This document shows positions 25,868-30,568 of a stretch of 64,000 bases of DNA, one piece after another (the stretch's first letter is position 1; every line of letters begins with the position of its first letter). The DNA is from Pseudogymnoascus verrucosus (lineage: Eukaryota). The stretch is taken from the NCBI GenBank assembly GCA_001662655.1, contig KV460206.1, one strand, 5' to 3'. The translations under genes were made by a program, and so were the position numbers. The notes under the pieces are model-generated. The model had not been told where the DNA came from. It worked only from the letters and a program-made list of their open reading frames with translations, and did no database searches.

Positions 25868-28088
25868 TCTATGGAAGTCAACGCCCGACGCTTCGATACG
25901 TTTTGGGCAAGAGCACTTACGTCGAGGCCACAAGCAGCAGCTAAATTCTACCGAATATCTTGTAATAAGACTATATATGCCGACTTGGCGCAAGGCAACT
26001 TTGACTCTTTTGCTTGATGGAAGTGAACTGGTCTCGCAAAGGCTTTGGTATCGGTATGGGAAAATCGAAGAGAAAAGAAGAGAGAGAGCGACGACGACAA
26101 ATATGAATCACAAACCATGAATATACTACCGCTACCTTACTTCCATTTAGACCAGGTCTCCGGTCATACCAAAGACCCCATACCGTACGATGCAAGGGAA
26201 CTTTCATTGTGTTTGAGTCCGTCGTCTTCGCCGATGAACAGATAACTTCACTTCGTCCACATTTGACATACTCTACTAAGTACTCTAGCCTCGAAGCCAA
26301 AAAAAAAAGGGGGGGAAGCTAAAACAGAAACATTTAGCTCCTTTAACTCCAAACTACTCGAGTATGGTCGCTCCTAGCTTCCCACCTGAAGAGTCATCAA
26401 AATTGACTACGAACTAGCATGGAGAAACATTCGACCGATCCGCGATAAAATTAGAAAATGTGGTCCGTTGCCGCGGTCCCCGCGGTCTCCGGCATTCCGG
26501 GCTCTTGGCATCATCGTTGCTATGGATACACGATGGTGACGAGTACTTACTCCTTTTTGGACATACCTCGGGACAGAGTGCCATCAAGGTACTTTCGGTC
26601 TCAAGCCGGGTGGATCCTCGAGGGTCTATGAATGGCGAGATCCAGGGGATTTCCAGGGTTTGTGTTCTTGCTAATCCTTTCACATGCGACTTGTTATGCA
26701 GTGAGGGAAACAACGGGGTTGGGGGTTGCGATATGCAGGAGCTGTTTACTTTGTTGGCACGGCGAGTCCAATGGATGCTGTCCACGCGTGCTGGCGGCAG
26801 GAGCCTCACCGACAACCCAACCACCGCAATACTATTATACATGACATGGCATGAAATGAGGCTGGGAGCAGAAAATAGAAGGCAGGATATGACTCTCAAT
26901 TGAGACCTTTCCGATAGTTTCGGTGCACATGCGTTGCAGTTCCCTGGCCGTGTAGTGGCATCTTCCTCGTACTCTGTTGTTTTCCCTGTTTCCCCGGCCA
27001 TGTCCAAGGAACTCCTGAACATCCAAGACTTCCCCGACAACCAATGTTAACCGCCCATTATGTGACAATCCCGTAACTCCACTCCAAGTTCAATTGTAAT
27101 TGGGTGGCGACGCACGTTCAGCTCAAGGCAAATCTCGTGGATCCCACTTAGGAAATGTGGTGGCTGTCTGAGACCTCGCCTACGTTAGCTTTGTTGACAC
27201 CCAAACAAACAACCCCATACAATTTATTGACCTCGACCTCCACAAACTGCCACGAATCTTTCCTCTTCCTTCCTCATCAACACATCTTCCTCAACAATTC
27301 TTACACAAGATTCCTGCACTACCACCTCATCCTCTCTCCACTTCAAAGAAGACTACGAGTTAAGAAGCGTTTATTAAGACGCTTTCTTCCCTCCCTTCTT
27401 CCCAGTGAAGCAAGAGGCCCCTTCTTGTATACCTTTCGTTACTCGGAAGGCATTCGAGAAGTGATCTCTCGCGCCAAAGAGCCGGCAATCTGGACTTTGA
27501 CGCCCGTGTTCCGATCCCCTTCAGCATCTTCCCGTCGACGTATAGAAACGTCGCCGCCGCACCTACCAAGGTCGAAGAAACTCACGTCGAGGGTGAGATC
27601 CAGCTTCCAGCTCCACAGCAGAGCTCCGCCGGACGGGACGGTTACCAATCTTCTTTCACCGCCAGCCTTCCTCCTCAGGAGCAAGAGCAACGCACAGAGG
27701 AAAAGGTCCACATCAACGTTAAGGAGGACCGCCACCACCGTCCGAGCCTATTCCGCAGGTTAGTTTAGAACCCCTATTCCAAACCAATGCCATGCAACAA
27801 CACCCTTGCTGACCCGAATCCCCATCCAGACCTATCCAGGAGCACTCTACCACCCACATTGACGTCCAGTTACCTCAGCGTCACCAAGAGCAGTCGCAGC
27901 AGTTCCAGCCGCAGTTCCAGCAGTCGCAGTTCCAGCAGCCACTGAACCAGTACCACTCGGACAACAACCTCAACTCGACAATCGATATTGCCGAGCGTCA
28001 ATACCGCACCCGCTACCAACCTAACTTCCAAGAACGCGTTAGCATCGAATCCAACGTTCAACCTTCCAAGGTTATCATCAACGACAAC

Positions 28089-28823
28089 ATGGGTTACTAC
28101 GATGAGTCTGGTACGTAGCAATCCTTTAGATGCAACCTTCTCCAAAACTAACTTTCCGTCAAGGTCACTACCACTCCTTCCGCAACGGTCTCCACCGTGC
28201 CGCCGACCGCATTGTGAACGGCAGCCACCACCACCACAACCCCGAGATTGATGTGGAGATCACCTCTACCACCAGCGGTGGCAGCAGCCAAGCTCCCCGT
28301 TCCCAGTCGGTCCAGGGTGGCGGCATTCCCAACACCATCACTATCCCAACCAACCACGTCCGCATTGGCGACATCGTGATCCTCCAGGGACGTGCCAGCC
28401 AGGTCATCAAGATCACCACCTCCCCTGCCACCGGCCAGCACCGCTTCCTCGGTGTTGACCTCTTCACCAAGCAGCTGCACGAGGACTCTTCGTTCATCTC
28501 CAGCCCATCCCCATCTGTTGTTGTTCAGACCGTTCTCGGCCCTGTCCTCAAGCAGTACAGAGTCCTTGACCTGAACGATGGCACCGTCGTCGCCATGACC
28601 GAGACCGTAAGTAACCCCACTTGTATCAGTAGTAGAACCATACTAACAACAATTCCAGGGTGATGTCAAGCAGTCTCTCCCAGTTATTGACCAGTCCAAC
28701 CTCTGGGCTCGTCTTAACGATGCCTTCGAGAGCGGCCGTGGCTCCGTTCGCGTTCTCGTTCTCAACGACCACGGTCGCGAGCTCGCCGTTGACATGAAGG
28801 TCATCCACGGCTCCAGATTGTAA
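28089..28823 (+). CDS. HEX1: Woronin body major protein HEX-1 (AUG-initiated form), 3 exons
   Basis: MGYYDES/GHYHSFR (intron 28111-28163), eIF5A-like core RIGDIVILQGR..GQHRFLGVDLFTKQLHE..KQYRVLD, C-terminal PTS1 ..HGSRL*. Confidence 0.97.
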
Positions 28824-29297
28824 GCGTTAGTCTCAATAGAGGAGATGAGTGTGAAAGCCCAGATGTAATGATGGCGATGAAATTGTGGAAATTTGGCTGC
28901 GGCATTGGGGATTTGATATTTTCGCGGTCTCTTGGTTCAGATATTGCATTGATACAACAGTTGACATGGATCTAAGATGACAGCATTGCTTTCTTCTTGA
29001 TTCGTAGTACAGCTGTGGGTATATTATATCGAGCTGGAGTTGGACAGTATGTAGCATAGAGAGCAATAACTGAGTTTTTGAGAATTCGTATAACTACGTT
29101 CAATATTGTATGGCATGCAAATGTGATTCTTTGTTTCTCAAATAAATAAATAAATGTAACAACAATAAATAAACAAGAATTTAACTTCACCATTTGTGAA
29201 CTTATTTTTCGAATTACTGTTGACGAACAAAATATATAATTATATAAACATGCTTATATTATCTGTAATATTTTGTTTCATTTCCATATTAATTATC

Positions 29298-30104
29298 TCA
29301 ATCGCCTTTCCCACTCCTCACATCGTCTTCCCTACTCGTTCTTCTCCTCCCATCACTATCATTGCTCATCTCTCTCCCAAATTCTTCGCCAGGACTCCTT
29401 ACTCTCCCCTCCTCACTACCCTCATCAACATCACTCTCAGGTCTCCCATTCTCGCCCTCCAACATCACCACATCATCCTCCTCTTCCTCCAACAACGCCT
29501 CAATATCCCCCAACGCACTAACCCGCGGCTCCAACACCTCCATATCCTCCAGCTGCTCCCTCTTCGGCATCTTCCACAGACTCGTCGCGCATATCCTCTC
29601 CTTCGTCAACAGCTCATCCACAAACTGATCCACAAATGTCAAGCTCGTCCCCTGCCTCCCCCTCCTCCTCAGCTTTCTCCCATCCTCCAAATACGGCTCC
29701 AGCGTCTCATAAACCTGCTTCGCCGGCCTCGTCAACCTCACATAAAAGCACGCCAGCGCCCTCAAATACTTGAATCGCTCGCCCCCATACCCCAGGTACT
29801 CCTTCAGAATGTCGTCCCCCGGCCCCAGCTGTAGTAGTTTGAACGCCAGACACAGGAACGGCGACGGCCGTTGCGAGTCACCGTATGTCCCCGCCACGAA
29901 ATGAACGTGCTCGACCACGCGACTCACGATATCGGCCTCGTTCAGCGCGAAGCACTGGTCTTTCCAGAAGTAGCAGTCGATGATGCGCTCGCGCACGGGC
30001 TTCTCGAAGATGGTGGCGGGGTTGAGGCCGTTGGGGGCGAGGGGGGCGGAGGAGCCGCGCTCGTCGAGGAAGCGCTTTTCGTCGGCGCGGTGGTGGCCGG
30101 ACAT
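29298..30104 (-). CDS. PRP38: Pre-mRNA splicing factor Prp38
   Basis: NPATIFEKPVRERII..FWKDQCFAL..PSPFLCLAFKLLQL..FKYLRALACFYVRL..DQFVDELL. Confidence 0.95.
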   Translation of the reverse strand: MSGHHRADEKRFLDERGSSAPLAPNGLNPATIFEKPVRERIIDCYFWKDQCFALNEADIVSRVVEHVHFVAGTYGDSQRPSPFLCLAFKLLQLGPGDDILKEYLGYGGERFKYLRALACFYVRLTRPAKQVYETLEPYLEDGRKLRRRGRQGTSLTFVDQFVDELLTKERICATSLWKMPKREQLEDMEVLEPRVSALGDIEALLEEEEDDVVMLEGENGRPESDVDEGSEEGRVRSPGEEFGREMSNDSDGRRRTSREDDVRSGKGD

Positions 30105-30568
30105 TGTGGTGGTGGGTGGAGGAGATGTGGAGGAGGTTCGGGCGTGGTGACGGTGGCGATGGCGTAGCTCGTGGGTTCTGTTGGTGGTAGGGGGTTGTCG
30201 CGGGCTTGGTGTGGTATAATTCGAGTTGGATTAGTTTGAGATATCGGTGTAGGGCATGGTAATGGCGCTATGATGGAGTGTACTGCGATAGCTGTTGGAT
30301 TGGAGCGGTTTGGTTGGGGAGTGTTTCCTTGAGGCTGTCGCAAAAGTTGATGGCGACAAGGCTGATATCGATTGTCGCCCCACCAACGGCATTTATTTAC
30401 GTCGCCCAGCCTTGCGTACAACCTCGCCCTGGCTTCAAGACGTCGTCCACCCTGGCAAACAGAAACGACTGCAGTCAAACACAATTATGCACCGCCTTTA
30501 AACAACACACATATCGCTTGAATACTATACTATCGCATCCTCACTCTGAGCACCGCTCACCACCCACA

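Follow-up and report, generated by a model that had tools for sequence, protein, structure and literature searches.

The present study analyzes the hex-1 locus of Pseudogymnoascus verrucosus in a 64,000-nucleotide stretch of contig KV460206.1 (assembly GCA_001662655.1), which we refer to at its full length as the window. The gene encodes HEX-1, the Woronin body's principal protein, and very probably yields two products from one mRNA: the classical short HEX-1, and a conserved long HEX-1 initiated at an upstream CUG, with leaky scanning past that CUG supplying the short form. Comparisons among relatives together with RNA contigs show that the exons upstream of the classical start are on the mRNA, that they are under coding selection, that they hold no AUG able to serve as a start for the long form, and that the CUG is invariant.

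Results

All features of the hex-1 locus described here lie on the plus strand. The canonical coding region (28089..28823) consists of exons 28089-28110, 28164-28606 and 28659-28823, separated by introns at 28111-28163 and 28607-28658. It opens with MGYYDES at 28089, in the context CAAC ATG G, and so carries the N-terminal MGYYD(D/E) of HEX-1, a hexapeptide described as highly conserved in the part of Vangalis et al. (PMC7762394) that was available to us. It closes with ...IHGSRL directly before the TAA stop (28821-28823), SRL being an instance of the C-terminal peroxisomal targeting signal 1 (PTS1) tripeptide of HEX-1 (S/A-R/S-L). When exon 28166-28606 was compared with the PDB, it matched chains named "Woronin body major protein" (8qlw_A, E 4.1e-59; 1khi_A, E 4.2e-45), and all seven matching sequences were 176-218 residues long. 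The Pfam model IF5A-like_N scored 23.4 bits on this single exon, under its cut-off of 27.1, and full-length HEX-1 relatives clear both PF21485 and PF01287.

The original prediction on this DNA, made from the sequence alone, held that the HEX-1 frame continues upstream of this start through a spliced extension of about 176 codons that lacks ATG and begins at a candidate CUG. The frame is exactly as it was described. After an in-frame TGA (27406-27408) it stays open from 27409 to 27758, crosses a 71-nucleotide GT..AG intron (27759..27829) with GTTAGT at 27759, GCTGAC at 27808-27813 and a CAG ending at 27829, is rejoined as AG|A, and runs on in the same frame through a Gln-rich stretch to the ATG at 28089. 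The candidate CUG start of the long isoform (27490..27492) lies 27 codons downstream of the TGA in the context CAAU CUG G, and the AAT CTG G that had been quoted for it was correct. From this codon, extension exon 1 (27490..27758), in which the conserved N-terminal motif LDFDARVPIPFSIFPSTYR is followed by a charged region, and extension exon 2 (27830..28088), with the Gln-rich stretch and the motif IDIAERQYRTRYQP, for which a short helix is predicted in a relative, contribute 269 and 259 nucleotides, which is 176 codons. The predicted lengths are 209 residues for the short HEX-1 and 385 for the long one. The only mistaken detail was that this CTG would be the first leucine codon after the stop: six others (CTT three times, TTA, and CTC twice) come before it in the same open frame, this codon being the first CTG there and the first near-cognate codon other than AAG or AGG.

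The strongest regularity concerns the CTG itself. When metagenome contigs were scanned with the exon-1 alignment, 219 loci were confirmed; the analysis covered the 80 that ranked highest in likeness to the window, and these and the window together form 49 sequence clusters. In this set the leucine codon of (N/I)LDF(D/E)ARVP is CTG in 80/80 loci and 49/49 clusters, so that the conservation expected of a functional start in the original prediction is complete. The context is nearly as rigid: all 49 clusters share A at -3 and G at +4, and 47 of them C at -4, giving CAAY CTG G. As a control, five invariant leucine positions of the core were considered: there CTG accounted for 11/88 codons, with two to four different codons used at each position, compared with 19/19 at the start. 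In all 57 motif-bearing proteins of the library search described below, the motif leucine is preceded by one of N, K, T, I and M, and since these five amino acids all have codons that begin with A, it is the nucleotide at -3 that is kept and not the amino acid. Between the upstream stop and the CTG an in-frame ATG occurred in 0/80 loci, two of which end at a contig edge. Among 50 representatives, an in-frame stop stands 3-4 codons upstream of the CTG in 20, and 33 have no near-cognate codon except AAG or AGG between stop and CTG; the same is true of the window between the TGA at 27406 and the CTG. The whole arrangement of CUG, context, Met-free extension and intron was found in all 49 clusters at the DNA level.

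The extension is also conserved as protein. A search of 1.84 billion cluster representatives with the exon-1 peptide returned 71 matches at E<=1e-3, including 25 at E<=1e-10 and a best match at 1.4e-23, and 57 of the 71 contain the motif LDFDARVPIPFS; the block that the original prediction had cited from long HexA models of other fungi is therefore real, and conservation upstream of 28089 is evident both at the protein level and in the CTG. Twelve of the 71 matches are full-length HEX-1 proteins with MGYYD and a PTS1-like end. By their NCBI names, such long models come from Sordariomycetes (Seiridium, Colletotrichum, Mariannaea, Gaeumannomyces, Monosporascus), Eurotiomycetes (Aspergillus, Ascosphaera), Leotiomycetes (Drepanopeziza) and Dothideomycetes (Alternaria), and at the protein level the motif spans these four classes of Pezizomycotina. 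Best BLAST matches of exon 1 against nine named proteins, 64 of 81 going to one Seiridium protein at 44-76% identity, are uninformative on class. The uninterrupted open reading frame (ORF) from CTG to PTS1 was present in 20 loci at 400-566 codons; 18 of these are short contigs of 1.65-2.4 kb, and genomic counterparts reveal splicing. In relatives, 196-349 residues precede MGYYD.

Protein conservation starts sharply at x-L-D-F-(D/E)-A-R-V-P, with the residues upstream all differing, and at the nucleotide level the pattern changes exactly at the CTG, being independent of frame upstream and specific to the frame downstream, where variation falls on codon position 3 and positions 1 and 2 are fixed. 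Across 20,481 nucleotides of extension in 26 sequences, stop codons number 0, 89 and 310 in frames 0, +1 and +2. The median pairwise ratio of nonsynonymous to synonymous substitution rates (dN/dS) for the extension was 0.39 (interquartile range 0.31-0.46, 160 pairs), below 1 as the prediction of a coding extension implies, and is a rough figure given that dS is about 1.2, near saturation, and that the repeat-rich part aligns poorly; the corresponding value for the core was 0.15, computed with the window core joined one base off, an error that touches the core figure only.

It could be argued that the upstream stretch is instead a long conserved untranslated leader, with a frame open by chance or composition and with the long GenBank models as artefacts. 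Conservation regardless of frame upstream of the CTG would suit such a leader, ATG-free leaders are normal, and Vangalis et al. (PMC7762394, in the available part) suspect faulty automatic annotation behind the hypervariable N-terminal extensions of Hex1 models. None of this would account for codon positions 1 and 2 being fixed and position 3 variable past the CTG, for the confinement of stops to the other two frames, for the dN/dS value and the protein matches down to E 1.4e-23, or for frame-specific conservation beginning exactly at the CTG, and we regard an untranslated leader as highly improbable.

Contigs of four public sequencing runs were aligned to 26900-28950 to examine the mRNA. Those of one run, X15, are DNA-like and span introns and intergenic sequence, whereas contigs from three runs of three separate studies (X1, X3 and X7) skip all three introns at GT..AG borders, with joints at 27755|27827, 28109|28163 and 28606|28659. 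The first X1 record alone covers 27303-27755, 27827-28109 and 28163-28480. Support of the kind that the original prediction sought for the 71-nucleotide extension intron comes from three runs, in which it is spliced out together with the two canonical introns. The contigs begin at 27303 (X1), 27331 (X7) and 27404 (X3), with no further joint upstream, which gives the hex-1 mRNA a 5' leader of at least 27303..27489 that is free of ATG and that includes the TGA at 27406. Their 5' ends, upstream of 27830 and spliced to hex-1, argue against a transcription start site located only downstream of the extension intron.

The same contigs bear on a second alternative, in which a genuine long form begins with a conventional AUG supplied by an exon further upstream that is spliced into the frame. 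Many NCBI models are so built, and several sequences have an acceptor-like AG just before the CTG. In the window, the contigs are continuous between 27303 and the CTG and include the in-frame TGA, which argues against any AUG exon joined to the extension frame, and many sequences have an in-frame stop 3-4 codons before the CTG. A second lineage provides a comparable test, in which the mRNA-like contig L035 and the genomic contig L030 are 99-100% identical apart from introns of 229, 47 and 49 nucleotides, and the L035 leader is collinear with L030 for 225 nucleotides upstream of the CTG; the pair L068 and L066 is likewise collinear upstream of the CTG. Among 23 short mRNA-like relatives with leaders of 102-333 nucleotides, 21 leaders are ATG-free and the other two contain one out-of-frame ATG each. 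Finally, database N-termini that do carry an AUG conflict with one another even within clusters of at least 90% identity, where the N-termini of NCBI models are mutually unrelated. We consider an upstream AUG exon extremely improbable.

Relatives have an intron at the place equivalent to 27759-27829, and contig comparison showed an in-frame 3-nucleotide deletion at 27559 in one relative. In genomic contigs L071 and L076 the CTG-to-PTS1 ORF of 444 codons is uninterrupted, and this lineage appears to have lost all hex-1 introns; in L077, from the same cluster, the ORF ends after 149 codons.

If both proteins are made from this mRNA, the distance between the two starts should be free of AUG. Near the locus the only plus-strand ATGs are at 27155, 27787, 27792 and 28089, and since 27787 and 27792 are both intronic, the extension exons lack ATG in every frame, as had been claimed. 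The window contains 1071 plus-strand ATGs in its 64,000 nucleotides, from which about 12 would be expected in the spliced leader of roughly 715 nucleotides (Poisson estimate). The unspliced ATG-free gap of 632 nucleotides is, however, the third longest in the window, and absence of ATG in the window is therefore not decisive by itself. In relatives the extension contains 0 ATG in 20,003 nucleotides (25 spliced sequences) against 78.5 expected from dinucleotide-preserving shuffles, whereas the downstream coding sequence of the HEX-1 core has 1-13 per sequence. In 26/26 sequences the Met of MGYYD and the strong context around it are unchanged, the main AUG also reading CAAx ATG G. Such depletion is explained by leaky scanning, since scanning ribosomes require an AUG-free stretch to arrive at the AUG of MGYYD, and it supports the leaky non-AUG initiation originally proposed.

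These data also speak to a third alternative, in which the CUG-started long protein is the sole primary product and short HEX-1 arises by proteolysis, from a separate shorter transcript or by internal ribosome entry. Cleavage of HEX-1 occurs in N. crassa and the mature form is treated as unsettled in the available part of Tang et al. 2020 (PMC7559983), and a second transcription start site is compatible with the contigs. Under processing or a separate promoter there would be no reason for the complete loss of ATG from the extension, or for the Met of MGYYD and its context to be invariant, and this alternative seems to us unlikely compared with dual initiation on one mRNA.

In one lineage (L055, L056, L058 and L064) the leader contains a single out-of-frame ATG, 37 nucleotides upstream of the CTG, and in L056 it opens a 15-codon upstream ORF (uORF) that closes just past the CUG and could allow ribosomes to bypass it.

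The leader itself, at about 27350-27489, is conserved at the nucleotide level irrespective of frame, the same bases reading GIRE or RHSR by lineage. It contains a stem-loop (27413..27469), ending 21 nucleotides before the CTG, in which an outer helix (CUUCUUG/CGAGAAG) encloses an inner one (CCUUUCG/CGGAAGG). The stem-loop is present both in the RNAalifold consensus and in the minimum free energy (MFE) structure of the window, with a z-score of -3.65 for 27340-27560. Over 44 sequences 87.7% of cells are paired, and in 7 pairs both partners change, as where three sequences have CG in place of UA; since there is so little sequence variation, covariation is modest. Slid controls for this element are biased, as the structure was taken from one member of the alignment. 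Rfam has no family in 27100-28200 at E<=1. The stem-loop might act in start-site control or mRNA handling.

Other possible pairings near the start were also considered. The Phe codon at 27496-27498, the third codon of the extension, is TTT in 49/49 clusters, while the two other Phe codons of the motif favour TTC (44/49 and 46/49); a conserved AAAG at about -13 to -10 is a possible pairing partner of this TTT, in a small, weak hairpin around the CUG (27471-27503) that has 71% of cells paired and several pairs not kept. A hairpin at 27506-27527, 17-38 nucleotides past the CUG and present in the MFE structure of the window, was considered as an aid to non-AUG initiation and dropped when its covariation score was equalled by 241/500 shuffles.

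As to what the extension is, it matches no Pfam family at E<=0.01, and a PDB search with its exon-1 profile gave no chain at E<=1. For structure prediction, AlphaFold2 was given a 470-residue relative whose first residue falls at the CTG position, together with an alignment of 22 sequences. Confidence (predicted local distance difference test, pLDDT) was below 50 at residues 1-133 and 152-264, the core was folded, and one short helix was placed at the ID..ER.YR.R motif; the extension is accordingly predicted to be disordered by this model. Conserved islands within it are the 19-residue N-terminal motif, GREG, EEVRI..EE.RY.RP and the helix motif. Many lineages add repeats of the form ..EEVRV.ETTVDPPR., which the window extension, among the shortest, does not have. 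A predicted complex between residues 1-60 of P0087, a Colletotrichum model, and its HEX-1 core (residues 320-470) scored 0.00 and 0.01 against a mark of 0.34, which is evidence neither way.

Some further observations were made at this locus. At the Gln-rich CAG/CAGTTC stretch of extension exon 2 (27880-27945), contigs of related strains break or diverge, with loose ends at 27906 and 27940, which suggests length polymorphism. The HEX-1 core of the window is divergent at 28330-28420 (IPTNHVRIGD...GRASQV), the IPTNH being common only to L001, and GRASQV stands in place of the GRPCQV seen in 57/57 other instances, with loss of two otherwise conserved Cys. Next to hex-1, on the minus strand at 29301-30230, lies a gene for a pre-mRNA splicing factor of the PRP38 family (PF03371, E 7.6e-59).

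Discussion

Patterns detected at hex-1 are consistent with translation of one mRNA from two start codons. Ribosomes scanning this mRNA would come first to the CUG at 27490, whose context (A at -3, G at +4) is optimal, and a fraction of them would initiate there, presumably with initiator Met-tRNA. These ribosomes would read 176 extra codons in frame, over the spliced 71-nucleotide intron and into the HEX-1 core, to make the 385-residue form with the same SRL terminus. Others would scan about 530 nucleotides without AUG in any frame and start at the AUG at 28089, giving the 209-residue HEX-1. The long form would probably be imported via its PTS1 and co-assemble through the shared core. This would place the extension, which is disordered and charged and bears a 19-residue N-terminal motif that hardly varies, on the surface of the HEX-1 assembly, and there it could engage a conserved partner or restrict lattice growth. 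That ribosomes start at the CUG, and in what proportion the two forms are made, we infer from sequence.

Several considerations weigh against this interpretation. First is the nature of the RNA evidence: X7 is a soil metatranscriptome on record, and X1 and X3 are RNA by guess, though their introns are absent. Such contigs are moreover blind to the transcription start site, to strand and to relative transcript levels, and are compatible with a shorter mRNA for the short form. Secondly, the loci examined were those most like the window, and the dN/dS values have the limits given with them. Among the library proteins, 14/71 are without the motif, mostly models that start downstream of it, and one 110-residue match, P0067, has M-Q-D-F where N-L-D-F occurs elsewhere, the sole such motif-bearing match; this may be an adjacent AUG in place of the CUG, or a gene-caller artefact. 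Lastly, since AlphaFold2 provides no fold for the extension, the argument for its function comes from conservation alone.

The kind of mechanism suggested here, an upstream CUG in good context combined with leaky scanning, is already known. In animals, dual-start genes such as c-Myc, FGF2 and PTEN-L use an upstream CUG and leaky scanning to produce long and short proteoforms; these are unrelated proteins from another kingdom, and no homology with HEX-1 is implied. A fungal study of 2020, going by its title, reportedly describes an alternative non-AUG start that creates a peroxisomal isoform, while here both forms share the PTS1. Our literature search found no paper describing a non-AUG start of HEX-1; an earlier mention in subscription papers on hex-1 transcripts is possible.

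The closest parallel is the non-AUG N-terminal extension of CPC1 (cpc-1), which is conserved across Pezizomycotina with dN/dS 0.285 (Ivanov et al. 2017, PMC5487733; this comparison draws on the part available to us). As in CPC1, the HEX-1 extension lies in frame before the annotated AUG, evolves under purifying selection and has a near-cognate start flanked by A (-3) and G (+4), and automated annotations include it without settling where it starts. Unlike hex-1, cpc-1 has several near-cognate candidates and two AUG uORFs that gate its translation; hex-1 has a single CUG that is invariant, and in most lineages the stretch from the cap-proximal leader to the main AUG is free of other AUGs. HEX-1 also differs from CPC1 in being a structural organelle protein. 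The terms hex-1, NCU08332 and Woronin do not occur in the text and 10 supplement files of that paper that could be consulted.

Two forms of HEX-1 have been described before, produced by alternative splicing of the first coding intron (Vangalis et al., PMC7762394, available part). Those splice isoforms are likewise two proteins from one gene that differ on the N-terminal side and share the core and PTS1. They differ from the present case in that both start with MGYYD and diverge by about 20 residues after it (188 versus 209 residues in V. dahliae); the long HEX-1 proposed here would have 176 residues, or 196-349 in relatives, before MGYYD, by choice of start codon and not by splicing.

A CUG start would also explain a puzzle in the databases. 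Of 460 GenBank Hex1 records, 123 were reported at 470-534 residues and 112 at 405-469, a total of 235 (Tang et al. 2020, PMC7559983). These long models represent the same extension; in the part of that paper available to us their lengths are left unexplained or attributed to possible misannotation, and no start codon is named. Initiation at CUG would account both for the long Hex1 records and for their conflicting N-termini, and P0087 begins with M exactly at the Leu/CTG position.

HEX-1 is a textbook self-assembling organelle protein, and a conserved second product of its gene would have been overlooked by gene finders, which require an AUG. With its one invariant CUG and leaky scanning over 530-1050 nucleotides of AUG-free coding sequence, hex-1 would provide an annotation rule for hundreds of genomes, and the conserved stem-loop of the leader may have a part in controlling start sites or the mRNA. 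The finding raises the questions of which partner the N-terminal motif binds and how the ratio of long to short HEX-1 relates to crystal size, envelope recruitment and tethering. A broader and more doubtful possibility, which we put forward tentatively, is that the Woronin body across Pezizomycotina has long HEX-1 as a second component, both ancient and obligatory, with the leader and the CUG setting the ratio and the arm serving as an adaptor or as a factor in crystal size. As an adaptor it would link the HEX-1 crystal to the organelle membrane or to the tether machinery, and if this were true, two decades of AUG-started HEX-1 constructs would have covered one of two subunits.

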